Of a stretch of DNA of 64,000 nucleotides, positions 2,511-64,000 are shown piece after piece. The notes below the pieces were generated by a model that had not been told where the DNA came from, did not search any database, and saw nothing but the letters and a program-made list of their open reading frames with translations. The first letter of the stretch is position 1, and each line of letters opens with the position of its first letter. The stretch comes from Candidatus Woesearchaeota archaeon. Its GTDB lineage: Archaea; Nanobdellota; Nanobdellia; Woesearchaeales; ARS49. A program made the position numbers and the translations under genes. Location of the stretch: positions 574 to 64,573 of the forward strand of contig JACQMY010000035.1 in NCBI GenBank assembly GCA_016203305.1, given 5' to 3'.

Positions 2511-2511
2511 A

Positions 2512-3162: not shown

Positions 3163-3165
3163 TTT

Positions 3166-3230: not shown

Positions 3231-3292
3231 CTTTCGTTATCACAAGACAGTAAGACAGCAATCTTATAAATAACGGAAAGCAACAGCACAAC

Positions 3293-5226: not shown

Positions 5227-5265
5227 ATAAAGTATGACATGTATGACAAGTATTTAAACCTTTGC

Positions 5266-43817: not shown

Positions 43818-43905
43818 AATAAAGCACTAAACAGAACCAGTATATAAAAATTACTTTTTTGTATACTGGACTCCTGCGCCAGAACAAATTCACTTGACAG
43901 TAATT

Positions 43906-44400: not shown

Positions 44401-44530
44401 GACGAAGGTAGTAGGACGAAGGGTGAAGGTAGAAGAAACGCAATCTTCACCCTTCCGCCTTATACCTTCAACCTCAATTAGTTGTTGGCTGTTAGCTAAT
44501 GACTATTAGTACTAATGGCTAACAGCGGCT
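44398..44530. repeat. Heptamer hairpin plus a GGCTGTTAGC...GCTAACAGC palindrome between convergent genes
   Basis: gtaggacgaaggtagtaggacgaagggtgaaggtagaag...cttcacccttccgccttataccttcaacc then ttggctgttagctaatgactattagtactaatggctaacagcggc. Confidence 0.7.
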
Positions 44531-45203
44531 AAATTACCCTAACCGTCGCCTGATAAACTTTCTCAGTATAGAATTGCTTCCGGTTCTCAGGCTTGCACTC
44601 AGGAGGAGACTGTCCCTCATCCTTATACACGCAAACATTAAACACATAGTCGCCCTTTTGCGTTGGAATACCCTGACCAGCATTCACGTCAGCACGAATC
44701 AACAAAGGCCTAACCTCCTGCTGATTCTTCTTCAAAGTAAAAGGAGGAACACTCTTGAAGTTGCCCAACCACCTCTGCTCAACAAACTGAGCGTTCTTCT
44801 GAGAGATAACAGAGCCATCAGGAGCATAAGCCTCATCAAAACTCAAAATAGCACCGAAACGCGCCTGTGCACCAATATTACGAACACCAAGTGCAAATTT
44901 TGCCATCGCGCCACGCTTTGCGTCTACAACAGTAAAAGGAATAACAACCAACTGATTGCCAGACTTCAAAGTCTGCAAAATCTGCTCCTGAGTCTGGCGG
45001 TCAATCTCCTGCTCCAACTCCTGAGCGCTGCCAAACCATTTGAACAACAAGTTAACAGACAATATGAAAACTAGCACGCCAATAATTAGCGCGACCACCA
45101 TTCCGATGCTGAACTCAATACCCTTTTTGGAAGGTAGAAGGAAGAAGGAAGAAGGAAGAAGACCTGCTCCATTCAAATCAGTCACTATTTTTTTGCTCTT
45201 CAT
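44529..45203 (-). CDS. Putative class-III-signal (archaeal type IV pilin-like) protein. The start is uncertain.
   Basis: ...KKG|IEFSIGMVVALIIGVLVFILSV resembles an archaeal prepilin cleavage site plus a hydrophobic helix. The 5' 90 nt of the ORF are heptamer-repeat sequence, so the true start may be the internal Met. Confidence 0.35.
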   Translation of the reverse strand: MKSKKIVTDLNGAGLLPSSFFLLPSKKGIEFSIGMVVALIIGVLVFILSVNLLFKWFGSAQELEQEIDRQTQEQILQTLKSGNQLVVIPFTVVDAKRGAMAKFALGVRNIGAQARFGAILSFDEAYAPDGSVISQKNAQFVEQRWLGNFKSVPPFTLKKNQQEVRPLLIRADVNAGQGIPTQKGDYVFNVCVYKDEGQSPPECKPENRKQFYTEKVYQATVRVI

Positions 45204-45232
45204 CCTACAACCTTCGTCCTATTCCGGCCTTA
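45128..45232. repeat. Heptamer array (gaagg aagaagg x4) and a downstream inverted C-rich segment, overlapping the 5' end of the pilin-like ORF
   Basis: ggaaggtagaaggaagaaggaagaaggaagaag ... cttcatcctacaaccttcgtcctattcc. Confidence 0.6.
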
Positions 45233-46610
45233 TCAAAGTAACCTTGCCCAAAGGCTTCTGGAAGTTACCACGCTTCTCCTGATCATTCTGGACATACATA
45301 TACCAAACACCAACAATCAAATTATGGTCCTCTTCATACTCAACAATGCCAGGAATAGAAACGCTCACTGTGCTCGCTGAGGAACTCAACTCCTGATTTG
45401 GACTAGCGTCTGCAAGCTGCTGCTGGCCATCCAACACGCGAACAGTCTCTACAACAACACGAGACACAGAAGGATCAGACTTGTAAATCTTCAAATCAAT
45501 CTGCAACTCATCCTTGCCAACAGTAAACGGATTGTTAAACTTGAAATTATTATTCAACTGAACAGGACCAAAATTCCTATCATCAAACAAGCTATTCGGC
45601 TGAACGGATGTGCCTGGCTTCAAAATAGTCACGCACTGATTGCCCCTGCACGTGAAGTCCAAAAAGTTACCAGCGCTACCCTGACAAGGACCACAGTCCT
45701 GCGCACAAGAACACTTCGTTTCAGTCTGGTCACACTGATAATTGCCACAAGCATTCGGAATAGGCTCATGCCTGCAGAAGAAACCAGTCTGCGCACTACA
45801 AGTATCACGCGTTCCCAAGTTCTTATCATCACAACTTGAAGGACAAGAATAACTCGCACCCGGTTTAACGAACACAAGCTTGTCCTTCACATTCACCTTG
45901 AATGAGCCCTGCTTTGGAACACGCTTGCTTCCCTGCAACAGAACATATTCAAAATCAATACTCAAAACAAGATTTGAAAGCTCTCCTTCAAGCTCAACAG
46001 TCGGGAAGTCCAAAATAAAATCGTGCGTGACAGAACTACCGCTCGTCCACAAATACCTATTGATATCCTCTCTTAATACCGTGATGGTTCGCTTATCTTT
46101 AGTCGTGCCTATTAACTCTGCACGCACCAACCGCTCATCACGATTCTGAGGACTCTGACTCAAAGTGAAAGTCACAGTGAACAAGTCCTTCTTCATGTTG
46201 AATGGCATATTATAACTAAAATCAACCTTGAACTTATCACCAGACATGGAAGCTTCAGCAGCGGCAAACACAGGTTTCGCACCAGAAACCTCCTCAACAC
46301 ACAACTTCTGCTCAGTACATTTATACGACAAGAACTGGCTCTGTGGAACCTTGCCAGAACACTGACCGCAATCCTGCGGATGACTGCACTTGTTCTCACC
46401 AGAATCACACACACCATTACCCACAACACCAGGAATAGGCTTGTAAACACACTTTTTCTCCTCACAACTCGCAGTAAAAGTAGACTTTGGTTTGCCAACA
46501 CAATCCTCAGTCTTCTTACACTCAGCCTTCGTGCATGCAACAAGAACTACCAATAATATACATACCAACAGGAAGACCTTTGACCTCATTTTTACCACTC
46601 TTAAAAACAA
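45219..46610 (-). CDS. Secreted Cys-rich protein with a duplicated Cys module flanking a beta-rich core
   Basis: MRSKVFLLVCILLVVLVAC signal. Two copies of a C-x-KCS-x3-DCG-x-C-xn-F-x-[FY]-x-C-xn-CV pattern. The start overlaps the giant gene's stop region. Confidence 0.6.
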   Translation of the reverse strand: MFLRVVKMRSKVFLLVCILLVVLVACTKAECKKTEDCVGKPKSTFTASCEEKKCVYKPIPGVVGNGVCDSGENKCSHPQDCGQCSGKVPQSQFLSYKCTEQKLCVEEVSGAKPVFAAAEASMSGDKFKVDFSYNMPFNMKKDLFTVTFTLSQSPQNRDERLVRAELIGTTKDKRTITVLREDINRYLWTSGSSVTHDFILDFPTVELEGELSNLVLSIDFEYVLLQGSKRVPKQGSFKVNVKDKLVFVKPGASYSCPSSCDDKNLGTRDTCSAQTGFFCRHEPIPNACGNYQCDQTETKCSCAQDCGPCQGSAGNFLDFTCRGNQCVTILKPGTSVQPNSLFDDRNFGPVQLNNNFKFNNPFTVGKDELQIDLKIYKSDPSVSRVVVETVRVLDGQQQLADASPNQELSSSASTVSVSIPGIVEYEEDHNLIVGVWYMYVQNDQEKRGNFQKPLGKVTLIRPE

Positions 46611-46624
46611 AGATACTTTTAAAC

Positions 46625-49600
46625 CTACCGCTTCCGCAACTTACGCTCATACACTTTCAACAACTTGTTAACACGCCCAATATCCTTATCCAAAGCATCA
46701 AACGCGTTAACCTGGCCCCTGACGTCAGGTTTCTGCGACAACTTGTCAACCTTAACCGGCTTCTTCCACAACACATCATTACTCAAATCACGCCTATACC
46801 TTCTCAACAACCTGCCAACAAGACCAGACTCTTTCTCCAAAGGCAGTTGGCTAGTAGTTTGTAGTTTGTAGTTGATATCTCGTGGCGCTGGCTTCCTGGC
46901 AATTGCATCAACACGCTCCTTCCAAAGTCTGCCAGTCAGATCTTTTCTATACTTATGCAACAAACTATCAATCCTGCCAGCATTCAAACCAACACGAGGT
47001 ATCTCCCTTGCAACAAACCTACGCTGCTCTGCACGACGCGCCTGATACGCAGCCCACTTGCCACGCACCACGCCAGGAACACGAACCGCAACCTGGCCAG
47101 CACGGAACGTCACTACCGCCAACAAAACAACCAGCAAAACAGCCCCAAGCATGTATCCAACACTCTTCCAGTCAACTTCTCTTGCTTTCTGAGCAACAGA
47201 ACGCCCAATAACAGAAACAGAGTCTGCTGCATCTCTTGCTGTGCTAACAGCACGGTCCACCAAACCATTAGCTATTGGCGGTTGGCCAGCAGTTTGTGGT
47301 TGGTAGTTTGTAGTTTGTAGTGGGTAGTTTGTAGTTTGTGGAGACAATTTCGCCAACGCCAAAGACACCTGGTTGTTGAACAACATGACAACCTGAACAC
47401 GCAAATCAGGCAAACCATCATCTGTAACATCAACATCCTTTGACTGACCAGATGAAAGTACAAACTCCTGAGGCTCACTCTGCACGCGCAACAAAACATT
47501 ATTCACACCAACATTCAAAACAGTCAAAACATGCCGCTCGCCAGCAACATCAAACACAACACGATCAAACTTATTCAAATACGGCGTAACAAATGAAGCA
47601 GCAGGCATGTTGAATTCCCTTGGAATACTCACGTTCTGCGTTGCACGCGTAGCACCACCACCGCCACCACCCGACGGAGCAGGAGACGGAACAGGCGGAA
47701 CAACAGTAACGTTAACCGTTGTAAGCTCAGAAACAACAACAGAACCATTACCACCAGACAAGTTCTGGAATGATGCGTTAACAGTATTGTTCAACGTACC
47801 ACTTGCTCCCGCACTAACGTTCACAGTAATATTTACAGTCGTGCTATTGCCTGGAGAAAGATTGCCCAACAACCAAGTATTGTTACCAACACTCGGAACC
47901 GGCTGACTACCATTAAACACCACACTGCCAGGATACGTTTCAACCAAAGTCACATTAAACGCAGTCTCAGTACCCGTATTATTGATTGTAATATTGTAAG
48001 ATAGCGTAGAACCATTATTCACAGGATCAGAACCATCAGACTTGGATACGTTGATTGTAATGTTGCCTAGTTCTCCAGCAGCATAACTCGTAAAGCTAGA
48101 AACGTTAAACACAAGCACGCCACCTACATAACTCACTTCTATGCACTGCGGAGGATTACACTGCTCAAACACACCATCATCATTAAAATCAACACGCGGA
48201 CGAGGATCTGTGAAAGACAAACCACGCAACGTGATTTGAGCGGAAGTGTTCAAGAAAGTAAGGTTTGTGCTGTTGAGGAAGGAATTGTTGAAGCTTGTGT
48301 TGAGATTGTTGTTGTCCGGCTCATGGACTATTGATGTGCTCACCGGGATTATTGCAGTGTTGATCATAAGAATGCTTCCGTTGTTTGAATGGAAGAGAGT
48401 ACGCGTGAATGAGTTATTTTGACTTGTCGCATCGACTTCCACCCAAGTACTCCCAGTGACAAGAGTCGTGTTCACAAAGGTATTATTACTCGAAGCAGTA
48501 AACCGCATCGCATTTTGACCGCCCAGAATGCTGGTGTTGGCGAGGTTGTTGCCTTCACCGGAAATATCAATCGCGCTTCCGGTTGTATTGGTTATCGCAA
48601 TCACGAATGTGTTGTTATAAAACGTATTGTTGTTTCCTGCAAGTTCCATTCCATTGCCACTGTTGCTCAGTCCGGTGTTGTGGAACAAGATATTGTTATT
48701 GCTGCCAGAAAGCAAATCCATGCCTCTGTTGGACCCGCTCGTGCCTCTATTCCTTATCAGGGTATTGTTCACACTTGATGCTGAGAGCGAAATGCCTCTC
48801 GCATCGGCCAACCCAGTACCATTGTTCCCACTCAGTGTGTTATTGCTACTACCCTCCAAACCGATTCCTGCCAACGACCCGCTCACTCCTGTGTTTTCAA
48901 TAAGAGTATTATTCGTTGCCGAATTCAAACGTAAGCCGATAGAGGTAGAGCTATTACCCGTGTTTCCAAACAGGAAATTGGCAGAGGCAGACTGAACGTG
49001 CAGCCCATAGCCACCGCTCGTGCTCCGGCCAGTATTCCCCCGCAAGGTATTATTCGTACTACTGCCAACAACAATGCCCTCATCACTCACTCCAACCCCC
49101 GTATTATTCTCAAAAGTACTGTTTATCACGCTTACTATCAACATTCCTCGCGAACCAGCTCCATTCGTAGTCGCAGAGTTGTTAACGAACCTGCTGTTGT
49201 TTGTTGACTGCACCAAAAAGCCTGAAGATCCTACTACACTCGCGTTCGTCTTCACAACATTACAATTCCTAACCGTGACATTCGACCTCTGGAATACAAA
49301 AATCCCATTTCCTGCCGCACTATTCGCATAACTTACATTGAATCCAGCACAATCCAATTCAACATTGTTCGACTGAATCTGGATCGCAGTAGCAGGACAA
49401 GTCACGTTCTCAGCCAATGTCGTGCTTGTCGTAATGTTGAGTGGACAGGCTGCTGACTCTGAAGCAGCATAACTTGTAAAGCTAGAAACGTTGAAAACAT
49501 ACACGCCGCCAGCAAAGCTCACTTCAGTACATTGAGGAGCATTACAGTTTGTAAACGTTCCATCGTCTTCAAAGTCAACACGCGGACGAGGATCTGTGAA

Positions 49601-52600
49601 TGGAACTCCATTCAAAGTCACTTGCGCAGTTGTGTTGAACAAAGACAAGCTCGTGCTATTAACGAATGAATTATTGGTAGTAACGTTGAGCTTAAACTGT
49701 GTGACGTCCTGCGCACCAGACAATAATATAAGATCAGGGAAACGAACGCTTCCATTGCCAGTAACGAACGTTGTGTTTGTGAAATTACTAGTAACAGGAC
49801 CTGAAGAAATCACTCCCGAACTAATCCAACTCGGTGCAGAAATGATCGTATCAGTGAAGTTCGAGAAGTTTGCTCCTTGAATAGTAATACCTGCAAGACC
49901 TCCCGCACTCACATTGATAATATTACCAGTGAAATTGTTCGAGTTTGCAGTTGCCGCACCACCACCAACACCAATAGCAATTCCTATTACGCTTGCACCA
50001 CTTGCTCGTATGACGTTACGGCTCACGTTATTATCAGAAGACGCAACAGTAATGCCAGAACCAGCAGCAACTATCGAGTTATTGTCAAAAAAGTTGTTTG
50101 TCGAGGTTGTTTCAACGGACATGCCAGTCCCGCTGGTAGTAACAACAGTGTTGTTGCGCACCATGTTACCCGTACTAGAGAATTGAACCGCAATACCCCG
50201 ATCATTACTAAAGCCAGAAGCCCGCACAGTATTATTCTCAACCAGATTGTTCAGAGTGTTCAAACGAATACCCCAGTTTGAACCCCCCGCACCACTCGTT
50301 GTGATAGTGTTGCTGCCGATTGCGTTGTTATTCGCTCCACTAGCCAAGAACATACCAAAGCCAAGACCTCCAGCAGACACAGTAACTATATTGTTGTTAA
50401 CTATGGAGTGAGCAGTAGCGCCAACCATCCTCAGACCATCATTATCCGAACCCGAACCACGCGCGATGATCGAGTTATTACGCACAACATTGCCCGCTGT
50501 AGAACCCTCCAAACGCAAGCCATGATTTAACGTGCTACCATTCGTGATGATTGAATTGTTTTCAACCAAGTTGTTTGAACCGCCAATGAAACGCACTCCA
50601 ATATTCGTGTTCCCAGCAGTGCTTCCAGTATTGATCGTGTTGTTCCCAAAAGCACTGCTGCTCATAGAAGTTGCTTGTATGCCAATACCATTGGATGAGC
50701 TGCTATTGGTCAGAATAGTATTGTTCAGCACAACAATACCAGACCCACTGCTCACAACAATGCCGATTCCAGAAGAAGTCCCATTAGTCCCTATCGTATT
50801 ATTCATCAACGAAACGTTGGACGAACCGGATTGCAACAAAACACCATAATTATCATTCGTACCATTCGTCTGCAAAGAATTATTTGCAAACAAGTTGTTG
50901 TTGGAATTCGTCACATTGATTCCAATTCCAAACGCGCCTCCAGCATTACCATCAACAATCGCGCAATTTCTTACTGTGACATTATTCCTTCCACTAACCA
51001 AAACACCCTGATCCTGCCCGCCACCAGCAGTATCATAAGTCACAACATTCCCAGCACAATCCAGCATCACGTTGTCCGAATCAACCTGCACTGCAGTAGC
51101 AGGACACGTCACGTTCTCAGTTAGCATCGTGCTTGATGTTATGCTGAGCGGACAGACTGCTTCTGAAATGATTGTTACATTGTTGCTTAACACCGTAGAA
51201 CCATCAGTATTCGGCTGATTATCATTCGGAGTAACGGCGACAGACCAGTTCTGGCCAACAGAAAGTTCATTGCTAACTATTGTTTCGAGATGCCTGCTGC
51301 GGTTGCCGTCAAGGTAGAGTTGATAGACTTGTGCCGCGGAAAGCGAACGATTATAAATGCGTACTTCGTCAATCGTGCCGTTGAAAAGTTCATCAGGACC
51401 GCTTTCATCCTGTATAGTCCCAATCTTAAGATTATTAACGCTAATAGCCCCCAATGACGCTGTTGCAGGAGTGCCATTAACCCCATCAACATAAACATTC
51501 ACAGTATTGCCAGCCCTCACACCAACAACATGATGCCACACATTAGCCGTCAGTGCAGAAGATTTTGTTGCAGTAGCAACTGTCAATGCATTATCCCTCA
51601 CAAGAAATCTGACATCCGCATTAAACTGGTCCAACAATAACAAAAACGGATTAGGCTCAGTAAGAGTAGTTGAATAACCAACAACAGCGTGCAGCCCAGA
51701 CACTGTCCTTGGACGAATCCACGCCTCAACAGAATAATTAAACCCAAGCTGCGTCTTTACCACATCACCAAGACTAATCATATCATTAACACCATCAAAA
51801 ACATAACCCCCACCAACTTGCCCGGACAAATTCCACACAGGCACAGTCCCTGCAGTACCATTCCCCAACGTACCATTATTACCAAACTGCGAATAATCAC
51901 GAACAGCACCAGATGAAGTGGAACTACTGTTCGTCTCAAACGGCATATTCAAAACAGCAATACTAGTTCCATTCACGCGCCAATCAGTAATGTTCTGAAC
52001 TGCGTCATTGTCTGCATCGGTAGCGTTGATAACGAATACTGTCAGATTCTCACTTGTTGACGCATTATTTGCCGTTGCACCACTGCCATCAGTACTGTTC
52101 AAGATGACTTGAGCGATGGCAGGGTCTGAGTTCAGAATAGTCACATTGTTGCTAAGAACCGTCGCACCATCAGTATTCGGCTGATTATCATTAGGAGTAA
52201 CGGCGACAGACCAGTTCTGGCCAACAGAAAGTTCATTGCTAACTATTGTTTCGAGATGCCTGCTGCGGTTGCCGTCAAGGTAGAGTTGATAGACTTGTTC
52301 CGCGGAAAGCGAACGATTATAGATGCGTGCTTCATCAATAGTGCCATCCATGAACTCACTGCACCCAGCAGGATCACCCCCTATGCGAACCGGCTGACCA
52401 TTCACGCCAAGAGCACGAGTCTCTGATGTCTGATTCTCAAGAACACCATTAACGTAAATCCTCTTCGTACTACGATCATAAGTTCCAACCACGTGATACC
52501 ATTGACCTGTGCTTATCGACGTTGTACTCGAAAGACAGCCAAAATCGTTTGTCCCATCAGAAAGAACAAGACAAAACTTATTACCAGACGCCAACTCAAG

Positions 52601-55600: not shown

Positions 55601-58600
55601 CGTGATCACGTCAGGCCTTAGCCAAAAGGCAATGCTGTACGTCGAAGGTTTGAGAGACGCATTATTTGCAACATGAATAAAATCATTCGCGCCATCAAAC
55701 GTGTACGCACCGCCGACCTTCCCTGAACCATTCCATTGCGGAGCAGCACCAGAAGACCCCTCACCTAATTGCGCGTTGTTACCCGCAGTCGAATAACTCC
55801 TGATCGCCCCGCTGCTCACATCGCTTGAATTCGTCTCAAACGGCAAATTCAAGACTGCAATACTCGTTCCATTGACACGCCAGTCAGTGATGTTCTGAAC
55901 TGAATTGTTGTCAGAGTCAGACGCGTTGATGACAAAGACAGTCAGATTCTCGTCTCTTGTTGCGTTATTGCCCAAGTAGCCAGACCCATCCGTGCTGTTC
56001 AATATCACTTGGCCAATGAATGGATCTGTGTTCGCGGAGACAATGGTGACGTTATTACTCAAGACTGTCGTACCGTCGCTTGCGTTCTGGTTGTCGTTTG
56101 GAGTAACTGCGACCGACCAGTTCTGGCCAATCGAGAGCTCATTGCTCACAACAGTTTCAATGTGCTTGCTGCGGTTGCCGTCAATAAAAGACTGATTAAC
56201 TTCTTGAGCGGAAAGCACACGGCCATACACCCGCACCTCATCCAGAGTTCCTGCAAATGCATCAGACGTCGTATCAGGACGCCCACCAACAGCCTTCTGC
56301 GCTGAAGCAAATCCCGGATTGGCATACGCGACACTGGAATCAAGGCTTCCGTTGAAATAAAAGCGAGCAGTTGAGGCATCATACGTTACGGCCACATGAT
56401 GCAAACTCGCAGTATCAGTGATTGTTCCAGTACTGCACGCTTCACTAATGCCGACCATTCCAATACAAAGCTTGTTCAGAGGGGAGAAATAGAACCCCCA
56501 CCCATTGGTCGCTGAAGAAACTATACCATCGCTCGTGCCAACACCATGTCGCCTCACCCACGCCTCAGCAGTCAGCGTTGTAATCTGCAGACTCGCAGGA
56601 GTACCAAGATCAATGTAATCATCCACACCATCAAAAGTATACGCCCCACCAACCTTTCCAGAAGAGTTCCACACAGGAACATTCGCAGCAGTACCCGCAC
56701 CAAGAGTGCCATTATTCCCAAACGTTGAATAATCACGAATCGCTCCCGCCGCAGTCGAACTGCTGTTAGTCTCAAACGGCAAATTAAGAACAGCTATTGA
56801 AGTTCCATTCACGCGCCAATCAGTGATGTTTTGAACGCTGTCGCCATCAGCATCAGTTGCGTTGATCACAAACACTGTCAAATTCGCACTCGAAGAAGCA
56901 TTATTACCCAAAGCACCACTGCCATCAGAACTGTTCAAGATGACCTGGGCAATCGCAGGATCGCTATTGAGAATAGTAACGTTGTTGCTGAGAACTGTTG
57001 TTCCATCCGTATTAGGCTCGTTATCATTAGGAGTCACAGCAACACTCCAAACATCGCCACGATGAAGCTCTTGCGAGACGAAAGTCGTCGGATGATTGCC
57101 ATTCAGACTGTCATTGTAAAGTCTGGCAACTTGCGCGGCCGAGAGCGAACGGTTATAGATGCGTGCTTCGTCAATCAACCCATTAAAGAACTCTGACCCT
57201 CCATCGAGCGAACCGATGTACAGATCCCCTGCATAATTCACCGAACCAAGCGATTGAGTCACGCTCGCCTGCAACGTTCCATTTACATAAAGATGAGCAG
57301 TGCTCGTTGAACGATCATAAACACCAACCAAGTGATACCAAGTATTCGCAGTAATCGGAGCGTTCGGTTGCGCAACATTTGTACCATCCCCAATCCCAAA
57401 GAATGCCGAGCTCCCAGAAGTCATCAAATAAATCCCATTGAAAACGGCCCCGCCCGAGTTTTTCCACAATATCCTATTGAATGCCGGAAGCGAAGATGCC
57501 TTAAACCACGCCTCATAACTGTATCCTTGCAAATTCGGAGTTATGCTCACACTATTGGGCACCCTGACAAAATCATTTGACCCATCAAACGAATACGCGC
57601 CGCCCACCTTTCCCGATGAAGTCCACCCTGGCGCATTCGAAGACACCCCATTGCCAAGCGTACCATTGTTAGTAAATGCTGAATAATCCCTAATCGCTCC
57701 TGTTGCAGTACTGCTAGAATTCGTCTCAAACGGCATATTCAAAACCGCAACAGAAGTTCCATTCACCCGCCAGTCGGTAATGTTTTGCACCGACGCATTA
57801 TCCGCGTCTGTCGCGTTGGTGATGAAAACAGTCAAGTTCTCATTCGTCGTAGCATTATTACCAAGATAACCGCTCCCATCCGTGCTATTCAAAACCACCT
57901 GAGCAATAGAAGGAGCGGTATTCGCTGATACAATAGTCACGTTATTACTTACCACAGTCGCGCCATCAGTATTCGGCTGATTATCATTTGGAGTAACCGC
58001 AACCGACCACGCCTGACCCGCCAAAAGCTCATTGCTCACCACAGACTCCAAATGCCTGCTGTTATTCCCATCAAGATAAAGCCGGTAGGCTTGCGCAGAA
58101 GTCAACGTACGATTAAAAATGGCAACCTCATCAAGCGTTCCTGTGAAAAAGTTCGAACCAGTCGCCCCAGAACCAACATATATCTCTTCTGTAAAGAACG
58201 TATGACTCGTCGTCAACTGCGTCGCATTCTTAAGCACACCATCAAGATAAATCCACTGGAACTTTGACGAATTCACCGCACACACAAAATGATGCCAAGC
58301 GTTATCCGCAACATTGACACCTGCCCCAGCAACCTCCCCGCCAGGATAGCCAAAACCACACGCAAACACGCTATTACTCACATATGGATGATACCCTCGT
58401 GTGTGTGCAGTGTCGCCCATTATTAACAACAAATCATCACCAGAAGAATCTGAAGTCTTAAACCACCCGCTAAAACTAAGCGCACTATTACCACTCGCAG
58501 GGAAACCAACAAGCGAACCAATCAAAATATTATCCCCCCCATCAAAAGTAAACGCGCCACCAACACGACCAGACAAATTCCACACAGGCGAAGCAGAAGA

Positions 58601-61600
58601 CACACCATTTCCAAGAGTACCATTATTCGACACACTCGCATAACTCTTCACCGCACCAGAAACCAAACTCGAAACATTCGTCTCAAAAGGCATGTTCAAA
58701 ACCGCTATTGAATTTCCATTCACACGCCAATCAGTAATGTTCTGGATTGAATCGCCATCCGCATCAGTTGCGTTGATTACGAACACCGTCAAGTTCTCAC
58801 TTGTCGATGCGTTATTTCCAGTGAAACCACTGCCATCAGTAGAATTCAAAATGACCTGTGCGATGCTCGGATCACTATTCAAAATTGTAACATTATTGCT
58901 CAACACTGTTGAACCATCCGAAGCGTTCTGGTTATCGTTAGGAGTAACAGCAACACTCCAGTTCTGGCCGTGACGCAATTCCTGAGAAACAAACGTTTCT
59001 GGATGCTTACTTCGATTACCATCTACATACAACTGCCTGACCTGCTGCGAGGACAGCGAACGATCATACATCCTGAACTCGTCCATCTTTCCATCAAACC
59101 TTGCCACTTCGCTTGGAGCGAACGTCAATGTATTGGCGAACGTGTTCTGCATATCAACCCCTGTAGCTGATGCCTGCAAAGTTCCATTCAAGTAAATACT
59201 CGCGTTTTGTGTTATCGAATCATATGTTGCAACCAAGTGATTCCATGTCCCTGCAGCAGTGGTGCCCGTATTCACATTAGCAACCTCGCCACAGCCATCA
59301 AACTCAATCGTACCCGTGCCACCTGACATAAAGATACGCCAACCATTGGTGCACGCGCAACAACTGGCAACTTTATGGAAAAGAAGTTGTATCCTCAGCT
59401 GATCGGGATTAAACCAGAACTCAACAGAAAAAGAACCAGTGTTCATCGCTGCTGTGTTTGCGACCGTCATGAGGCTGTTCGAACCGTCAAAGTCTATCGC
59501 GCCCCCCACCTTGCCAGTGCTCATCCAGGAAATACTTGTAGGCGAGCCATTGTTGCCACCAGGAGCATAATTGCGCGCGGTTGACGCAGTGTTCGTCTCA
59601 AACGGCATGTTCAGCACTGCAATCGAAGTTCCGTTGACACGCCAGTCAGTAATGTTTTGGATGGAGTCACTGTCTGCATCAGTTGCGTTGATCACGAACA
59701 CCGTCAAATTCTCATTCGTACTTGCGTTATTGCCTGTTGCGCCAGAACCATCAGTACTATTCAAAATAACCTGTGCAATGGAAGGATCCACGTTCGCACT
59801 GATCGTTACGCTATTGCTCGTCTTGGTCGTCCCATCTGTGTTCGGCTGATTATCATTCGGAGTAACCGCAACAGACCAATTCTGACCAACAGAGAGTTCC
59901 TGGCTAACGATTGTCTCAAGATGCTTACTGCTATTACCATCAAGGTAAGACTGGTTTATTTCCTGAGCGCTTAGCGTCCTGTTAAACATCAGCACTTCAT
60001 CAATAGAACCACTCCACGGCTGGTTGGTACCGTCACGAGCGCCCATCTCAAAATTCGCCGCATTGCTCAAACTTCCCGCAAATGATGAACTATCATGATC
60101 AGTGACTGCTTGCAACGCGCCATCCACATAGACACTCATCCCGCTGCGCGTCTTGCTTCCGTCATACGTAACAACCACTTGATGCCATGCACCATCGTTG
60201 AACGTGGCAGTCGTCTGCCTTCGCATGACAGTCGTCGAACCATCGACAAGGACAAACCCCACTTTGCCCGCATCACCTGCACCAGCCGTCACCACGTTCA
60301 TACCAACTTGATAACCGGCGAAAGACCCTGAGAACAATTCCTTGCTGGCAATCGTATAGACCGCCGCACCACCCGCAGTCGTCTTAAACCATGAATGAAT
60401 CGAGAAAGGCCCTGAACCAGACTGATCAAGAACATTGCCCAGATTGATATAGTCATTCGAACCATCGAAAATATAATAGCCCCCTACTTTTCCAGACGTG
60501 TTCCAAACAGGCGCGTTCGCTGCAGTGCCCGCGCCGAGCGTGCCATTATTGCCAAAAGTAGAATAATCCCTAACTGCTCCAGAAATGACCGTCGTGACAT
60601 TAGTCTCAAACGGCATATTCAAAACTGCGATAGATGTCCCATTGATACGCCAGTCCGTGATGTTCTGGACAGAATCATTATCCGCATCACTCGCATTAAT
60701 CACGAACACCGTCAAATTCTCATTCGTAGAAGCGTTATTGCCAGTTGCGCCGCTGCCATCCGTGCTGTTCAAAATTACTTGATCAATTTCAGGATGAGAA
60801 TTGATGATTGTCACGTTATTGCTCAGCACAGTCGTACCATCAGTATTCGGCTCGTTATCATTAGGAGTCACCGCGACGGACCAAACGTCGCCGCGGCGAA
60901 TCTGATTCGCATGCATCGTTTCCACGTGACGAGAACTGTTGCCATCCAGATACGTCTGATAAATCTGGCCTGATGACAATGACGTGTTAAAGATCGCGAC
61001 CTCATCAACCCGTCCATCATAAAAGTTCGCCGCGGTTGAATACTTACCCATCTGCAACGCATTCGCAGAATGTGAAACAGAACCAGTGACCGCGGTCTGA
61101 CCCGTCAGCTGACCGTCAACATACGCAAGAAGATGCGTTTGGTTGTACACTCCCACGAAATGGCGCCAAGAACCCAGCATATTTGTCGTGTTAAACGTCA
61201 CCGTTGATGGAGTCAAACCGTACGCGAAGAACGTCCACGTATTCCCTACACAATCCTCATAGAACATATACCCTTGCGTACCGATCGTTATCTTTCCAAC
61301 AGGAACGAAATTATCCCTCGTCCCATCACACGTCGAGTTGACATCCTGATTGATCCACGCTGAAACGGTAAACGCCCCGCTTGGACGCAACGATGCACTG
61401 TCCGCCACGCTGATGAAATCGTTCACCCCATCGAAATCGTATGCTCCTCCCACACGACCCGAAGTCGTCCAGACAGGAACCTGCGCCGCAGCGCCAGCAC
61501 CAAGCGTCCCATTATTGATCGAGGTCGAATAATCCCTCACCGCGCCGGTTGTGACCACAGAAAGATTCGACTCAAACGGCATATTGAGCACGGCCATACT

Positions 61601-63997
61601 TGACCCATTGACACGCCAATCAGTGATGTTTTGAACTCCCTCGTTGTCTGCATCAGTTGCGTTGATAACAAAGACTGTGAGATTGCTTGATGCGTTCGAG
61701 ATGTTCAGGTTGTAGCCTGCGCCATTCGAATTATTGAGAATAACCTGCGAGATAGAAGGCTGCGTGTTCGAAACGATAACCACTGCATTGCTCAACACCA
61801 CGGTCCCATCGCTCTCATTCTGCTGGTCGTTTGGCGTCACCGCGACAGTCCAGTTGTTTCCGACCGCAAGCTCACTGCTCACAATAGTCTCAAGATGCTT
61901 ACTGCGGTTACCGTCAGAATATAACTGATAGATCTGAGCCGCGGAAAGAGTCCTATTGAAAATCAAGACCTCATGAATCGCACCCACAAACGTATTACCT
62001 GCAGTGTCAGGTCTTCGGCCAACCGCTTTCGCAGTCGTCGTAAAGCCTGGACTCGCGTACGCGACACTTTGGTTTAACGTACCGTTCACATAAAACGACG
62101 CGGTCACGCCGTCGTACACGACCGCGACATGACTCACGCCGGTACCAAAAGTGGCAGTTGTACACGCCTCACTCGTGCCGACTTTTCCAAAACACAAGAA
62201 GTTGCCAAATTGATAATAGAACGCATAACCCCCGAAACTACTCGCAACAACCCCACCCGTGCCCGTCCTATTCGTCCAAGCAGCAATCGTAAACGAAGAT
62301 AATTGCAGACTCGAATCACTGCCCAACGCAATCGCGTCATCAACCCCATCAAACACAAAAGCACCGCCCTGATTCGTTCGCGCCCACACCGGAGAAGTGC
62401 CCGCAGTCCCGTTCCCGAGCGTCCCATTATTGACAAACGTCGAATAGTCGCTGATTGCACCTGCCGTGGTGACACTGACGTTCGTCTCAAACGGCATGTT
62501 GAGCACCGCGATGGAGGTTCCATTGATTCGCCAGTCAGTGATGTTTTGAACTCCCTCGTTGTCTGCATCAGTTGCGTTGATGATGAAGACCGTCAAGTTC
62601 TCGTCGGTCGACGCGTTATTGCCGGTTTCGCCAGAACCATCAGAACTATTCAAAATAACCTGATCAATCACTGGATGAGTATTGCTGGAAAAGCTTATGT
62701 TGATCGTTCGCGTGCTAAAGTGCGGAGTAATAGTCACATTACTTGTATCAAAAGAAAGCTGGTATTGGAAATACCGTCCTTGCAAGCTAAGCAAAGTAGA
62801 CCCGTTTGTATTTTGAGTTCCAAAACCGGCGTCTGAACAATCTGTAGCGTTACACGCCCTCGCACGCAACCTAACATCAGTTGAATTAAAGCCAACACTC
62901 AATTCAGCAGCAGGACTCGGACTTGTACCGCTAAAGCTGCTGGAAGCAATCTTTATTCCACCATTACCGCCTGCGCCACCCGGAGCTGTTGCGGAACCTC
63001 CTGCGCCGCCAGTTGCAGTAATGCTTCCCGTATTCGTTATGTTATTTGCCGCAAGAAGCACCATTCCACCTGCGCCACCTCCAGGACCACCGTCAATAAC
63101 ACCGCCAGCACCAGCGTTTCCATTCGCACTAATGCTCCCAGTAACGTTGATACGCATCGCTTTGACCAGGATAATGCCTCCTCCATTTGCACCAGCAGTA
63201 CAACAATCATTCGCTCCAGGAATGTCCCCTCCAACTCCTCCGCCACCACCCATTGTAAGTCTTGTTTCTGCAGCGCTGCCAAAAGTACCTCCTCCTGCAC
63301 CCGGACCAGTGCCGGACCCAGAGCTTCCTGACACGCGATTCCCGCCACCGCCACCACCACCATTAGGACTGCCACCAGTCCCGCCACCGCCGCCACCGTT
63401 GTTTGCAGAAGTGCTAACCGCGCCCTTACCTGTGAATCCTTCCCCTTGCTTTCCAGAACCAACTCCTGACCCCGCATCAGAACCGCGATACCCCCGTCCT
63501 GCCACGCTGATACTTCCTTGAACTGTAACGTTGTCCGCGCGGAAAACCACAATGCCTCCTGTGAAACCATTCCACGTATTTGCAACAACACTCGCACCAC
63601 CATTAACCGTGAGAACAGAATAATGCGGAACACGAACAATTTGAGTAACAGTTGCAGCAGTACTATCAAACGTACCACTATTGTAACTATTCGTAAGACT
63701 TTGATTGAGTGTGAGACTAGAAGTACCTCCTCCCGAACTAATCGTGCGGAACTCATACGTGCCAACCGTACCTCCTCCGCTCGTCTGCATCTGAATGATG
63801 AGAATCTCGTCACCATTGCTGAAACCAGCACCTGAATTCACAGCTATGACGTTATCGCCTGCTGCCTCATTGCCTGTGAGATAAGTATACGTGTTGACAA
63901 CAGTATTTGCACTACTGACTGTGAGACTCCCGCTCAGCCCAGTGCCCCACTCATTGTTGGAAATCTCGTCCCATGCCACATTCGTCCACGTTGTCAC
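46625..63997 (-). CDS. Giant surface protein of at least 5,790 aa, with its 5' end beyond the window. It has a Gly-rich N-region, 12 tandem ~320-aa repeats (Ig-like plus LamG/ConA-like lectin fold), two parallel beta-helix (PbH1/NosD-like) modules, a CARDB/DUF11-like domain, a Gly run, a TM anchor and a ~155-aa repetitive cytoplasmic tail.
   Basis: The reading frame is uninterrupted to the window edge. NITDWR[VI]NG[TS]SIAVLN[ML]PFETN occurs 12 times, followed by ...VGGAY.FDG.DD.I... LamG_3-like cores. Block 1 is CPLSITSSTMLTENVTCPATAVQVD plus NNT/NNS 22-aa turns, and block 2 is CPLNITTSTTLAENVTCPATAIQIQ. LSYNITINNTGTETAFNVTLVETYP is CARDB-like. The TM segment is VGYMLGAVLLVVLLAVVTF. Confidence 0.85.
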   Translation of the reverse strand: MTTWTNVAWDEISNNEWGTGLSGSLTVSSANTVVNTYTYLTGNEAAGDNVIAVNSGAGFSNGDEILIIQMQTSGGGTVGTYEFRTISSGGGTSSLTLNQSLTNSYNSGTFDSTAATVTQIVRVPHYSVLTVNGGASVVANTWNGFTGGIVVFRADNVTVQGSISVAGRGYRGSDAGSGVGSGKQGEGFTGKGAVSTSANNGGGGGGTGGSPNGGGGGGGNRVSGSSGSGTGPGAGGGTFGSAAETRLTMGGGGGVGGDIPGANDCCTAGANGGGIILVKAMRINVTGSISANGNAGAGGVIDGGPGGGAGGMVLLAANNITNTGSITATGGAGGSATAPGGAGGNGGIKIASSSFSGTSPSPAAELSVGFNSTDVRLRARACNATDCSDAGFGTQNTNGSTLLSLQGRYFQYQLSFDTSNVTITPHFSTRTINISFSSNTHPVIDQVILNSSDGSGETGNNASTDENLTVFIINATDADNEGVQNITDWRINGTSIAVLNMPFETNVSVTTAGAISDYSTFVNNGTLGNGTAGTSPVWARTNQGGAFVFDGVDDAIALGSDSSLQLSSFTIAAWTNRTGTGGVVASSFGGYAFYYQFGNFLCFGKVGTSEACTTATFGTGVSHVAVVYDGVTASFYVNGTLNQSVAYASPGFTTTAKAVGRRPDTAGNTFVGAIHEVLIFNRTLSAAQIYQLYSDGNRSKHLETIVSSELAVGNNWTVAVTPNDQQNESDGTVVLSNAVVIVSNTQPSISQVILNNSNGAGYNLNISNASSNLTVFVINATDADNEGVQNITDWRVNGSSMAVLNMPFESNLSVVTTGAVRDYSTSINNGTLGAGAAAQVPVWTTSGRVGGAYDFDGVNDFISVADSASLRPSGAFTVSAWINQDVNSTCDGTRDNFVPVGKITIGTQGYMFYEDCVGNTWTFFAYGLTPSTVTFNTTNMLGSWRHFVGVYNQTHLLAYVDGQLTGQTAVTGSVSHSANALQMGKYSTAANFYDGRVDEVAIFNTSLSSGQIYQTYLDGNSSRHVETMHANQIRRGDVWSVAVTPNDNEPNTDGTTVLSNNVTIINSHPEIDQVILNSTDGSGATGNNASTNENLTVFVINASDADNDSVQNITDWRINGTSIAVLNMPFETNVTTVISGAVRDYSTFGNNGTLGAGTAANAPVWNTSGKVGGYYIFDGSNDYINLGNVLDQSGSGPFSIHSWFKTTAGGAAVYTIASKELFSGSFAGYQVGMNVVTAGAGDAGKVGFVLVDGSTTVMRRQTTATFNDGAWHQVVVTYDGSKTRSGMSVYVDGALQAVTDHDSSSFAGSLSNAANFEMGARDGTNQPWSGSIDEVLMFNRTLSAQEINQSYLDGNSSKHLETIVSQELSVGQNWSVAVTPNDNQPNTDGTTKTSNSVTISANVDPSIAQVILNSTDGSGATGNNASTNENLTVFVINATDADSDSIQNITDWRVNGTSIAVLNMPFETNTASTARNYAPGGNNGSPTSISWMSTGKVGGAIDFDGSNSLMTVANTAAMNTGSFSVEFWFNPDQLRIQLLFHKVASCCACTNGWRIFMSGGTGTIEFDGCGEVANVNTGTTAAGTWNHLVATYDSITQNASIYLNGTLQASATGVDMQNTFANTLTFAPSEVARFDGKMDEFRMYDRSLSSQQVRQLYVDGNRSKHPETFVSQELRHGQNWSVAVTPNDNQNASDGSTVLSNNVTILNSDPSIAQVILNSTDGSGFTGNNASTSENLTVFVINATDADGDSIQNITDWRVNGNSIAVLNMPFETNVSSLVSGAVKSYASVSNNGTLGNGVSSASPVWNLSGRVGGAFTFDGGDNILIGSLVGFPASGNSALSFSGWFKTSDSSGDDLLLIMGDTAHTRGYHPYVSNSVFACGFGYPGGEVAGAGVNVADNAWHHFVCAVNSSKFQWIYLDGVLKNATQLTTSHTFFTEEIYVGSGATGSNFFTGTLDEVAIFNRTLTSAQAYRLYLDGNNSRHLESVVSNELLAGQAWSVAVTPNDNQPNTDGATVVSNNVTIVSANTAPSIAQVVLNSTDGSGYLGNNATTNENLTVFITNATDADNASVQNITDWRVNGTSVAVLNMPFETNSSSTATGAIRDYSAFTNNGTLGNGVSSNAPGWTSSGKVGGAYSFDGSNDFVRVPNSVSITPNLQGYSYEAWFKASSLPAFNRILWKNSGGAVFNGIYLMTSGSSAFFGIGDGTNVAQPNAPITANTWYHLVGVYDRSTSTAHLYVNGTLQASVTQSLGSVNYAGDLYIGSLDGGSEFFNGLIDEARIYNRSLSAAQVARLYNDSLNGNHPTTFVSQELHRGDVWSVAVTPNDNEPNTDGTTVLSNNVTILNSDPAIAQVILNSSDGSGALGNNASSSANLTVFVINATDADGDSVQNITDWRVNGTSIAVLNLPFETNSSSTAAGAIRDYSTFGNNGTLGAGTAANVPVWNSSGKVGGAYTFDGVDDYIDLGTPASLQITTLTAEAWVRRHGVGTSDGIVSSATNGWGFYFSPLNKLCIGMVGISEACSTGTITDTASLHHVAVTYDASTARFYFNGSLDSSVAYANPGFASAQKAVGGRPDTTSDAFAGTLDEVRVYGRVLSAQEVNQSFIDGNRSKHIETVVSNELSIGQNWSVAVTPNDNQNASDGTTVLSNNVTIVSANTDPFIGQVILNSTDGSGYLGNNATRDENLTVFVINASDSDNNSVQNITDWRVNGTSIAVLNLPFETNSSDVSSGAIRSYSTAGNNAQLGEGSSGAAPQWNGSGKVGGAYTFDGANDFIHVANNASLKPSTYSIAFWLRPDVITATGANLATIIVGTRDLDSVNNNFGAWIDFSAVGAFVRNNVGTITVVSESVPIQINVWTHYVITADGSTLRLYKNGSLNNSGAYANLQTNSQPIVIGERYFNSNNLGTFFDGTMDGIMIFNRTLSTAEVVQLYNDTNQGKHLSAIASAELRRSDVWSVAVTPNDNRPNTDGVTVLSNNVTIVNAHPSIAQVILNSTDGSGALGNNASTSENITVFVINASDADGDSVQNITDWRINSTSIAVLNLPFETNASSTVTGVVRDYSSFGNNGTLGNGIVANAPVWTASGRVGGAYTFDGVDDYVDFGDINALDGLSSLSISLWVKPISLSALKSLISKYSAATGNFFVGTAEFDMNDLVFAPTAIGGLDIGFTTGNFLDNNVWTQVVMVYDGSGIGNAGRLKAYINGSSVSLSFSGTIPGTLPSNSLPVLIGSASDGRYFNGVIDEVLIFNRSLSADQVYQLYVDGNRSRHLETISSSQLRRGDVWSVAVTPNDNQNASDGSIVLSNNVTILNADPAIAQVILNSTDGSGATANNASLRENLTVFVINATDADGDGVQNITDWRVNGTSIAVLNMPFETNTNSTALGAIRDYSSYGNNGTLGNGSVANAPVWNSSGRVGGAYVFDGTTDYIVTQQNTGISGNPSFSIETWLKTNTTSAAQCAVLAGDETVALAAAGLCINVVGAGGVSLEFAGGNGARTAGGIISANTMHHIVAVKTPGPISTTTSIYVDGVLQALSTSSANTPSITNLVAQIGWFGPAGLLYFNGTIDEVRIYNRTLTAAQVQQLFLDGNRSHHPETFVEQETSLGDNWSVAVTPNDNQNASDGSTVLSNNVTIVSANVAPSITQVILNSTDGSGASGNNASTSENLTVFIINATDANDDGVQNITDWRINGTSIAVLNMPFETNTSSTVSGAVRDYSQSGNGGQLGGGTAANAPAWTSAGKVGGAYSFDGVNDHVVVPDSDSLDIQNAIALEAWVNYDSLTSFDRIFGKYTGSCASPFRVYGLELASGNKFCLVLSDGTNDFGCLSSTTSISTGQWYHVVGTYDRSTKRIYVNGVLENQTSETRALGVNGQPVRIGGDPAGCSEFMDGTIDEARIYNRSLSAEQVYQLYLDGNRSRHLETIVSNELSVGQNWSVAVTPNDNQPNTDGATVLSNNVTILNSDPAIAQVILNSTDGSGATANNASTSENLTVFVINATDADNDAVQNITDWRVNGTSIAVLNMPFETNSSSTSSGAVRDYSQFGNNGTLGNGTAGTVPVWNLSGQVGGGYVFDGVNDMISLGDVVKTQLGFNYSVEAWIRPRTVSGLHAVVGYSTTLTEPNPFLLLLDQFNADVRFLVRDNALTVATATKSSALTANVWHHVVGVRAGNTVNVYVDGVNGTPATASLGAISVNNLKIGTIQDESGPDELFNGTIDEVRIYNRSLSAAQVYQLYLDGNRSRHLETIVSNELSVGQNWSVAVTPNDNQPNTDGSTVLSNNVTIISEAVCPLSITSSTMLTENVTCPATAVQVDSDNVMLDCAGNVVTYDTAGGGQDQGVLVSGRNNVTVRNCAIVDGNAGGAFGIGINVTNSNNNLFANNSLQTNGTNDNYGVLLQSGSSNVSLMNNTIGTNGTSSGIGIVVSSGSGIVVLNNTILTNSSSSNGIGIQATSMSSSAFGNNTINTGSTAGNTNIGVRFIGGSNNLVENNSIITNGSTLNHGLRLEGSTAGNVVRNNSIIARGSGSDNDGLRMVGATAHSIVNNNIVTVSAGGLGFGMFLASGANNNAIGSNTITTSGAGGSNWGIRLNTLNNLVENNTVRASGFSNDRGIAVQFSSTGNMVRNNTVVTTSGTGMSVETTSTNNFFDNNSIVAAGSGITVASSDNNVSRNVIRASGASVIGIAIGVGGGAATANSNNFTGNIINVSAGGLAGITIQGANFSNFTDTIISAPSWISSGVISSGPVTSNFTNTTFVTGNGSVRFPDLILLSGAQDVTQFKLNVTTNNSFVNSTSLSLFNTTAQVTLNGVPFTDPRPRVDFEDDGTFTNCNAPQCTEVSFAGGVYVFNVSSFTSYAASESAACPLNITTSTTLAENVTCPATAIQIQSNNVELDCAGFNVSYANSAAGNGIFVFQRSNVTVRNCNVVKTNASVVGSSGFLVQSTNNSRFVNNSATTNGAGSRGMLIVSVINSTFENNTGVGVSDEGIVVGSSTNNTLRGNTGRSTSGGYGLHVQSASANFLFGNTGNSSTSIGLRLNSATNNTLIENTGVSGSLAGIGLEGSSNNTLSGNNGTGLADARGISLSASSVNNTLIRNRGTSGSNRGMDLLSGSNNNILFHNTGLSNSGNGMELAGNNNTFYNNTFVIAITNTTGSAIDISGEGNNLANTSILGGQNAMRFTASSNNTFVNTTLVTGSTWVEVDATSQNNSFTRTLFHSNNGSILMINTAIIPVSTSIVHEPDNNNLNTSFNNSFLNSTNLTFLNTSAQITLRGLSFTDPRPRVDFNDDGVFEQCNPPQCIEVSYVGGVLVFNVSSFTSYAAGELGNITINVSKSDGSDPVNNGSTLSYNITINNTGTETAFNVTLVETYPGSVVFNGSQPVPSVGNNTWLLGNLSPGNSTTVNITVNVSAGASGTLNNTVNASFQNLSGGNGSVVVSELTTVNVTVVPPVPSPAPSGGGGGGATRATQNVSIPREFNMPAASFVTPYLNKFDRVVFDVAGERHVLTVLNVGVNNVLLRVQSEPQEFVLSSGQSKDVDVTDDGLPDLRVQVVMLFNNQVSLALAKLSPQTTNYPLQTTNYQPQTAGQPPIANGLVDRAVSTARDAADSVSVIGRSVAQKAREVDWKSVGYMLGAVLLVVLLAVVTFRAGQVAVRVPGVVRGKWAAYQARRAEQRRFVAREIPRVGLNAGRIDSLLHKYRKDLTGRLWKERVDAIARKPAPRDINYKLQTTSQLPLEKESGLVGRLLRRYRRDLSNDVLWKKPVKVDKLSQKPDVRGQVNAFDALDKDIGRVNKLLKVYERKLRKR
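51200..62700 (-). repeat. Array of 12 tandem ~920-1,010-bp in-frame coding repeats (LamG-type units) with stretches over 95% identical
   Basis: The ctcaaacggcat(a/g)tt(c/g)a(a/g)(a/c)ac(a/t)gc(a/c)at landmark recurs at 51941, 52901, 53881, 54862, 55842, 56764, 57723, 58682, 59598, 60610, 61564 and 62497. For example, 51236-51330 and 52196-52290 are nearly identical. Confidence 0.8.
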
Positions 63998-64000
63998 CGC

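Follow-up and report, generated by a model that had tools for sequence, protein, structure and literature searches.

The 64,000-nucleotide (nt) stretch of Candidatus Woesearchaeota contig JACQMY010000035.1 analyzed here (the window) is dominated at one end by a giant surface-protein gene on the minus strand, followed on the same strand by genes for a cysteine-rich (Cys-rich) protein and a pilin-like protein, which we refer to as pilD. An original prediction, made from the letters of the window alone, had read the three as the operon of a candidate undescribed adhesion or host-interaction system. The giant frame does stay open to the window edge, as had been claimed: 5,791 sense codons run without a stop from position 64000 to a TAG at 46627-46625, and the codon preceding the listed GTG start (63997) is GCG. 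At ~45% GC, about one stop per ~21 codons would be expected by chance, so the open reading frame (ORF) is not a chance one. Its translation is identical to residues 310 to 6100 of a 6,100-amino-acid (aa) protein, P0233 (NCBI MBI4146721.1), which is encoded on a contig of 112,799 nt and annotated as [quoted passage not shown] That record contains the whole gene, which starts 927 nt past the window edge, so that 309 N-terminal residues lie outside the window. The N-terminus reads MKKGGIDRRLVVALLAIAFALVLVLVPF, a predicted Sec-type signal or anchor, and is followed by a weak Big_9/cadherin-like domain; a metagenome scan with it returned 0 matches. The gene is thus already annotated in NCBI, although uncharacterized, and belongs to a kind of protein known from DPANN archaea. 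The original prediction also held that the lineage could not be fixed from the window. It is Woesearchaeota (DPANN): both small downstream proteins are 100% identical to Ca. Woesearchaeota HY489_05280 and HY489_05275, and archaeal genes are found elsewhere in the window (L15e, a family B DNA polymerase, a short TIM, DnaK/DnaJ, and an Lhr helicase).

Residues of the giant protein are counted here from the window edge (window-aa); adding 309 converts them to full-protein numbering. Within the window the chain begins with a Gly-rich distal module, which matches NCBIfam NF047640, the N-terminal domain of Myxococcus AgmC, at an E value of 1.5e-35. The score of 122.9 bits does not reach the curated equivalog-domain cut-off of 275 and indicates homology of the module only. 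This module (window-aa 1-446) has no match in Pfam, nor by sequence in PDB; its homologues include archaeal “flagellin-like” proteins of ~500 aa that start with class III signals, as well as DUF2341 proteins. In the array that follows, Laminin_G_3 (PF13385) was detected in every piece of ~600 aa between window-aa 447 and 4288, with E values of 1e-24 to 1e-47 and 86.7 to 161.6 bits per piece (gathering cut-off, 27.6), and self-profile matching counted exactly 12 units. Two right-handed beta-helix modules come next, both above the gathering scores of Beta_helix (PF13229; cut-off, 25.9 bits) and NosD (PF05048; cut-off, 23.6 bits): module 1 has Beta_helix at 3.8e-17 (62.8 bits) and NosD at 1.2e-10 (41.7 bits), and module 2 has Beta_helix at 1.2e-12 (48.2 bits) and NosD at 5e-10 (39.6 bits). 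They are a duplication, visible as the internal DNA repeats D5 and D6, and each ends in a conserved Cys-containing domain of ~80 aa. The Pfam scan of the giant protein found no pectate lyase, glycoside hydrolase, or other catalytic family past any threshold.

Closer to the membrane lies a DUF11 domain (PF01345; E value of 3e-11, 41.5 to 44.1 bits against a cut-off of 24.6), which also matches TIGR01451 at 2.6e-5. CARDB (PF07705), the name originally given to this stretch, scores 18.0 to 19.7 bits (E values of 0.001 to 0.0035), under its cut-off of 22.7, and DUF11 is the better name. The remainder of the predicted domain stack held up, namely, the 12 LamG_3-like units, the two NosD-like beta-helix modules, and a transmembrane (TM) segment, after which comes a cytoplasmic tail. 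The tail, originally described as structured, carries an internally duplicated LL(H/R)(K/R)YR(K/R)DL motif and matched no Pfam family. The ectodomain is acidic, with 422 D/E against 221 K/R, and together with the basic tail (42 K/R, 17 D/E) this fits a positive-inside topology. N-x-S/T sequons number 259, about twice the 126 expected from composition. The giant protein of the window shows no obvious PGF-CTERM-type sorting signal. Coordinates are collected in Table 1.

Table 1. Features of the giant gene and its surroundings in the 64,000-nt window
Feature	Position (strand)	Window-aa	Details or basis
Giant surface-protein gene	46625..64000 (-)		codons 310-6100 + stop inside window; open frame and identity to MBI4146721.1
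Distal Gly-rich module	62663..64000 (-)	1-446	NF047640 match and homologues
Array of 12 LamG units	51137..62662 (-)	447-4288	Laminin_G_3, unit alignment, identities, PDB matches
Right-handed beta-helix module 1 with ~80-aa Cys-containing cap	49454..51136 (-)	~4289-4849	Pfam, repeats D5/D6
Right-handed beta-helix module 2 with cap	48074..49453 (-)	~4850-5309	Pfam, repeats D5/D6
DUF11 (CLIPPER/CARDB-like immunoglobulin [Ig]) domain	47771..48052 (-)	~5317-5410	PF01345
Pro/Gly-rich linker (GGGGGG) and juxtamembrane segment without family match	47171..47770 (-)		translation
Single C-terminal TM helix	47105..47170 (-)	5611-5632	WKSVGYMLGAVLLVVLLAVVTF; sequence inspection
Basic cytoplasmic tail	46628..47104 (-)		159 aa; 42 K/R vs 17 D/E
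Spacer from giant stop to Cys-rich ATG	46590..46624 (-)		35 nt; gTTTAAAAgtatcTTTGTTTTTaagagtggtaaaa
Cys-rich predicted lipoprotein	45219..46589 (-)		456 aa, 24 Cys
Pilin-like protein pilD	44529..45203 (-)		224 aa; homologues, alignment, AlphaFold2 (AF2) model
Convergent archaeal-type signal peptidase I-like gene	43894..44400 (+)		TIGR02228; start codon uncertain
C-terminally anchored Ig-like surface protein	41949-43817 (-)		622 aa; conserved adjacency in related loci
SpoIIM-like membrane protein	41136-41948 (-)		Pfam; conserved adjacency in related loci
Further surface protein	26364-33284 (-)		2,306 aa; Big_9, PKD, cadherin-like domains

The 12 units are 305 to 336 aa long, and in each of them a LamG (concanavalin A [ConA]-like lectin) domain sits between the two halves of a conserved framework of ~115 aa. 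The N-half of the framework (~62 aa) contains an ATDADxD motif of the DxDxD type, and the C-half (~55 aa) contains WSVAVTPND. Between units, the framework halves are 81% and 68% identical in amino acid sequence, against 22% for the LamG cores. The first element of the array is a framework N-half and the last is a C-half, which means that it is built of whole units, an arrangement that fits a single framework domain with a LamG domain inserted into it. Lectin-fold matches in PDB were confined to unit-profile positions ~85 to 280; the best was an “S-layer domain-containing protein,” the second was an extracellular arabinanase domain, and others included the receptor-binding (Hc) domains of tetanus and botulinum toxins, pentraxins, and sialidase.

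Only ~50% of the residues that are identical between units are encoded by identical codons, and unit-to-unit DNA identity is 60 to 78%. This synonymous divergence indicates that the repeats are old and that selection at the protein level has preserved them; on the same grounds we rejected the idea that the framework owes its conservation to recent gene conversion or to assembly collapse. One pair of 209 nt departs from this range: the framework C-halves of unit 12 (51171-51379) and unit 11 (52137-52345) have 94% DNA identity, which suggests a local recent duplication or gene conversion. We also considered a diversity-generating retroelement and set it aside, as the Pfam scan of the larger window ORFs detected no reverse-transcriptase domain, although no search was aimed at template repeats.

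A profile of the 12 units, searched against 1.84 billion representative proteins, matched 24,280 of them at E < 1e-30. More than 100 of the best 150 matches are proteins of 1,000 to 7,800 aa with several copies, many of them of the whole unit including the framework; these multi-unit proteins are of metagenomic origin and uncharacterized. It remains true, as the original prediction stated, that there is no characterized homologue with this exact arrangement, yet more than 100 uncharacterized giants share the unit, and the gene itself is annotated in NCBI. One homologue comes from the metagenome-assembled genome (MAG) SURF_65 (JGI sample Ga0104751), where it is split in the public assembly. The last 88 nt of contig L050 and the first 88 nt of contig L009 overlap at 100% identity, and the joined contigs encode an intact 5,624-aa giant of the same design as that in the window. 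One-to-one orthology of LamG cores between the two giants was not supported, with best core identities of 23 to 30% for three automatically delimited SURF_65 units.

C-termini resembling that of the window giant are found in L009, L050, and a further contig, L051. The last ~25 residues of the tail (...D.D...I..LL....RKR; window 46628-46700) are found again at the ends of other giant homologues and in proteins whose genes lie just upstream of two of them (L009 ~4000-4066, L050:2-76, and L051:1-999). This suggests that tail-bearing surface proteins with a common conserved cytoplasmic motif may form tandem arrays. In another contig of the same sampling series, a divergent archaeosortase/exosortase gene (Exosortase_EpsH; L049:1768-2844) lies beside the gene of a 4,827-aa multi-LamG giant.

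Short-read contigs from Logan that represent the same population as the window (L005 to L007; SRR12113383-85) stop ~80 to 220 nt from the 3' end of the giant gene. Given such breaks, routine metagenome assemblies probably lack genes of this kind or break them up systematically.

Downstream of the giant gene, the Cys-rich protein has a lipobox, LVAC19, whose consensus in 24 sequences is LAAC with an invariant C19, and it is on this account a predicted lipoprotein. The original description of a Cys-rich secreted protein thus stands for the cysteines, of which there are 24, and not for plain secretion. The protein is internally duplicated, with two disulfide-rich knots and a beta-sandwich after each.

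The pilD product is pilin-like in design. It has a basic leader, the sequence KKG-IEFS, a hydrophobic helix of 22 aa, an amphipathic helix, and an Ig-like sandwich. Its AF2 model (pLDDT, 88.5) has a long N-terminal helix (residues 33 to 81) and then the sandwich, and its best fold matches include no solved pilin. We found 65 homologues of ~200 aa, and E30 is nearly invariant in their alignment. Like its relatives, pilD shows the hallmarks of a class-III-type N-terminus, namely, a basic leader, a G/A site, an acidic residue, and a hydrophobic helix of ~20 aa. Curated models do not recognize them: PF04021, PF07790, and PF01917, which describe pilins or class III signals, matched 0 of 44 family members at E ≤ 1, and the window pilD matched no family at E ≤ 5. 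What had been called a class-III-signal pilin-like gene keeps its N-terminal pattern and lacks the backing of the curated models. Fold searches with pilD and the Cys-rich protein gave generic Ig-like or beta-sandwich matches only and no functional clue. The window pilD has an atypical leader of 28 aa with a 22-aa N-terminal extension that is absent from its homologues. Within this extension, three copies of TTCTTCC and a partial copy lie at 45135-45160 (minus strand). Phase variation through this tract found no support, the copy number being equal in two independent short-read assemblies and the window; a third contig ends just short of it.

The three co-directional genes are closely spaced, with 35 nt between the giant and Cys-rich genes and 15 nt between the Cys-rich gene and pilD, which lies close behind it, as predicted. 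The giant stop had been thought to overlap the start of the Cys-rich gene at 46610. There is no overlap: the TTG at 46610 is 14 nt downstream of the stop, and the ATG at 46589, which is supported by homology and annotated by NCBI, is 35 nt downstream. The spacer between them holds a TATA-box-like TTTAAAAG ~30 nt before the ATG and an oligo-T run, TTTGTTTTT; the counterpart spacer in SURF_65 is 117 nt long and has TATTAAATA at a similar distance from the ATG. These elements only resemble archaeal TATA boxes and oligo-T terminators, and with them in the spacer, co-transcription cannot be assumed.

To place the small genes we used a synteny set of 41 genome loci and several metagenome contigs encoding Cys-rich relatives, which we searched with the window proteins (the genome-contig scan for Cys-rich relatives used 14 closer sequences); upstream sequence was readable in 35 related loci. 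The genome of the window itself is absent from the GTDB representatives. In about 35 species-level Woesearchaeota genomes (L001:9107-12000; also L003, L008, and L010 to L042), the Cys-rich gene is part of a four-gene cassette that encodes, in order, a pilin-like protein (~215 aa), a two-TM protein of 71 to 77 aa (~75 aa), the Cys-rich lipobox protein (~456 aa), and a second pilin-like protein (~205 aa). This order was found in 33 of the 35 readable loci, usually with no more than 260 nt between the 75-aa gene and the Cys-rich gene. Both pilin-like paralogues keep the motif (K/R)(G/A)-x-E-(F/M/L)-S and the hydrophobic stretch across ~30 genomes. Neither Pfam nor NCBIfam has a family that any of the four proteins matches past its cut-off. 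Within Pfam, NCBIfam, PDB, and the literature searched, the cassette is undescribed; it is the more original by-product of this analysis, and its link to the giant gene is weak.

Positions 44529-46589 of the window correspond to the 3' half of the cassette, and the upstream pilin-like paralogue and the 75-aa gene are not in the window. Only in SURF_65 (L050 plus L009), 1 of the 35 related loci, does a giant gene lie directly upstream of the Cys-rich gene, and the Cys-rich proteins of the window and SURF_65 are 57% identical. The 33 cassette loci that lack the giant gene have no LamG unit within 10 kb, and the giant homologues in L049 and L051 have unrelated neighbors and no adjoining cassette gene. 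Synteny of the three genes in related genomes, which the original prediction had set beforehand as the condition for a joint system, largely fails. Within 950 nt upstream of the SURF_65 giant lie genes for a membrane protein of 91 aa and an RHH-like protein of 66 aa, as well as the final part of a further gene for a tail-bearing protein. Insertion of the giant between the 75-aa and Cys-rich genes is thus unsupported, no cassette gene being present in these 950 nt, although one could lie further upstream. A “variable adhesin slot” at this point of the cassette was also rejected; the few insertions between the 75-aa and Cys-rich genes encode unrelated, cytoplasmic-looking proteins. Many of the cassette records (L011, L012, L016 to L019, L021, L027, L029, L031, L033, and L048) bear the title “uncultured Methanosarcinales archaeon” or “Candidatus Binatia bacterium”; such titles are probably taxonomic mislabels or reflect bin contamination in public MAGs.

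A signal peptidase I-like gene does converge on the cluster, as originally noted, with a match to TIGR02228 just under the cut-off (51.0 against 51.85 bits; E value of 1.4e-13). The ORF has the Ser motif SNSMAP, and the presence of a catalytic His and Asp was judged by eye only. A signal peptidase I-like gene occupies the equivalent position in at least 14 related loci. In the closer relatives, the convergent signal peptidase I-like gene, an anchored Ig protein of ~620 aa, and a SpoIIM-like protein follow the cassette exactly as in the window (41136-44400). The 622-aa protein and the 2,306-aa surface protein encoded farther along are anchored in the same way as the giant: a poly-Gly/Ser linker leads through a short juxtamembrane stretch into one C-terminal TM helix. 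Anchors of this build are apparently common among the surface proteins of this organism.

From the observed reading frame, domains, unit conservation, homology, and synteny we infer export, topology, glycosylation, ligand binding, and an adhesin role for the giant. With a probability of roughly 0.7, it is a membrane-anchored, heavily glycosylated, multivalent lectin-type adhesin, and the Cys-rich and pilin-like genes belong to a separate cassette that lies downstream of it in two lineages. The 6,100-aa protein would be a type I membrane glycoprotein, exported by its N-terminal Sec-type signal and held in the membrane by the single C-terminal TM helix and the basic 159-aa tail. A membrane-proximal stalk, made up of the DUF11 Ig domain and a pair of rigid beta-helix modules, would bear a chain of 12 units that each present a different LamG (ConA-like) lectin domain on the conserved framework, with the Gly-rich AgmC_N-like module and the cadherin/Big_9-like domain at the far tip. 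The acidic ectodomain is predicted to be heavily N-glycosylated. With its 12 divergent LamG cores, the protein would bind glycans or glycoproteins broadly or in combination, whether on host cells, neighboring cells, or particles. The Cys-rich and pilin-like genes would be the 3' half of a Woesearchaeal envelope cassette and not dedicated partners of the giant. Of the adhesion or host-interaction system originally proposed, this keeps the surface topology and the adhesin, which fits published DPANN giants, and drops the dedicated, undescribed three-gene system.

Several points weigh against this interpretation. Surface exposure, glycosylation, and binding are deduced from sequence for the giant and its close homologues alike, and host attachment by the window organism is itself only presumed. 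Beta-helix modules of the NosD/pectate-lyase-like kind can be enzymes, and a degradative role is conceivable. With the Cys-rich proteins only 57% identical in the two genomes that have the adjacency, that adjacency may be old and functional rather than incidental, and co-transcription of three co-directional genes with spacers of 35 and 15 nt is possible.

These last points lead to the reading closest to the original prediction, in which the giant, Cys-rich, and pilin-like genes form one co-transcribed adhesion system whose small proteins would, for example, anchor, cap, or display the giant. The shared strand and short spacers favor it, as does the recurrence of the order in SURF_65, where the divergence of the Cys-rich protein implies that the genes did not come together very recently. 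Each of the three products is a predicted envelope protein, large adhesins and Cys-rich anchored proteins are frequent in type IV pilus loci of archaea (PMC4858521), and class-III-signal and DUF2341 proteins have a module homologous to the distal one of the giant. We nevertheless consider the system unlikely, since 33 of 35 loci have the Cys-rich/pilin-like pair with no LamG protein within 10 kb and with pilin-like and 75-aa genes upstream instead, the pair is missing beside the giants of L049 and L051, stop and start do not overlap, and a TATA-like box and T-run stand in the spacer of both genomes with the adjacency. What survives of the three-gene operon is its short, co-directional junctions; conserved adjacency (1 of 35 loci) and the stop/start overlap do not. 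In a quite improbable variant, the cassette would be an undescribed Woesearchaeal surface apparatus, e.g., a short pseudopilus or an anchor complex with the disulfide-rich lipoprotein as its cap, and the giant would have been recruited to be mounted on or deployed by it. If this were true, the 12 unit cores would be a rapidly diversifying host-recognition array.

The giant could instead be mainly structural, as a sheath or spacer resembling a surface layer (S-layer), or a tethered polysaccharide-degrading enzyme in which the beta-helix is catalytic and the LamG domains serve as carbohydrate-binding modules. The two Beta_helix/NosD modules are consistent with this, as are the S-layer and arabinanase proteins that head the PDB matches of the LamG profile, and anchoring by a C-terminal TM segment has been proposed for large S-layer-like proteins of archaeal loci (PMC4858521). 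On the other side, no catalytic family passed any threshold, 12 mutually divergent lectin cores exceed what substrate targeting needs, a single copy of a 6,100-aa protein is unlikely to form a lattice, and second and third anchored surface proteins are encoded nearby. We regard either role as very unlikely. An assembly artifact or pseudogene, i.e., a chimeric ORF or one with collapsed repeats from which no single protein is made, is hardly credible. The breaks in the Logan assemblies near the 3' end and the 94% identical repeat pair are what one would cite for it, but an unbroken run of 5,791 sense codons in the window, and of 6,100 in the NCBI entry, speaks against it, DNA identity between units is otherwise too low for collapse, the array consists of whole units from first N-half to last C-half, and the independent 5,624-aa homologue is intact.

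How DPANN archaea recognize and hold their hosts is largely obscure, and no member of the Woesearchaeota is in culture. The locus offers a complete, well-delimited candidate attachment protein whose modular anatomy can be tested domain by domain. The four-gene envelope cassette, with confident structure models for two of its proteins, is possibly the more useful by-product. Current views are not overturned; the locus adds an example and a testable target.

Among known systems, archaeal type IV pilus loci combine DUF2341 adhesins, minor pilins, and Cys-rich anchored proteins (Makarova et al. 2016, PMC4858521). The cassette resembles them in placing proteins with a basic leader, a G/A site, a Glu, a hydrophobic helix, and a beta-sandwich beside a Cys-rich protein, in the window together with a large putative adhesin, and homologues of the distal module of the giant are fused to DUF2341 or class III signals. 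It differs in that no prepilin peptidase, assembly ATPase, or TadC/FlaJ was found among the larger window ORFs scanned or the annotated genes of cassette loci L001, L003, and L004, and in its motif, (G/A)-x-E-(F/M/L)-S, which is not the published QxSxE motif. With the adventurous gliding motility protein AgmC of Myxococcus, the giant has only the distal Gly-rich module in common, from which no gliding function can be inferred.

Bacterial giant repeat adhesins such as the RTX-type ice-binding protein MpIBP, LapA, and SiiE have an anchored end, a long extender of beta-domain repeats, and distal ligand-binding modules. The window giant appears to follow the same logic and has an acidic motif of the Ca-binding type (DxDxD) in its framework repeats. 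Adhesins of the MpIBP/LapA/SiiE type use type I secretion with retention at the outer membrane, and their repeats are plain spacers. The window giant differs in its predicted Sec signal and TM anchor, in its type of repeat, and in carrying a distinct lectin domain on each repeat.

The closest comparison is with other DPANN archaea, whose LamG and giant surface proteins have been read as presumed host-attachment factors (PMC10266531, PMC7414124). Nanohaloarchaeal giants of the “SPEARE”/SVXNc_0300 type reach 8,880 and 9,409 aa, and LamG proteins of arCOG07813 occur in Undinarchaeota, nanohaloarchaea, and ARMAN (PMC10266531, PMC7414124). The nanohaloarchaeal giants have a cytoplasmic VirB4/TraG-like ATPase domain and a neighboring secretion ATPase gene (as redescribed in PMC10266531), whereas the window giant ends in a 159-aa tail without family match, and the larger window ORFs scanned include no VirB4/TraG ATPase. 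Conversely, the 12-fold unit of framework and LamG, the two beta-helix modules, and the AgmC_N-like tip of the window giant are not part of the description of the nanohaloarchaeal proteins. What they have in common is that tiny genomes spend several per cent of their length on very large, signal-bearing, C-terminally anchored proteins built of Ig-like and LamG/ConA-like domains.

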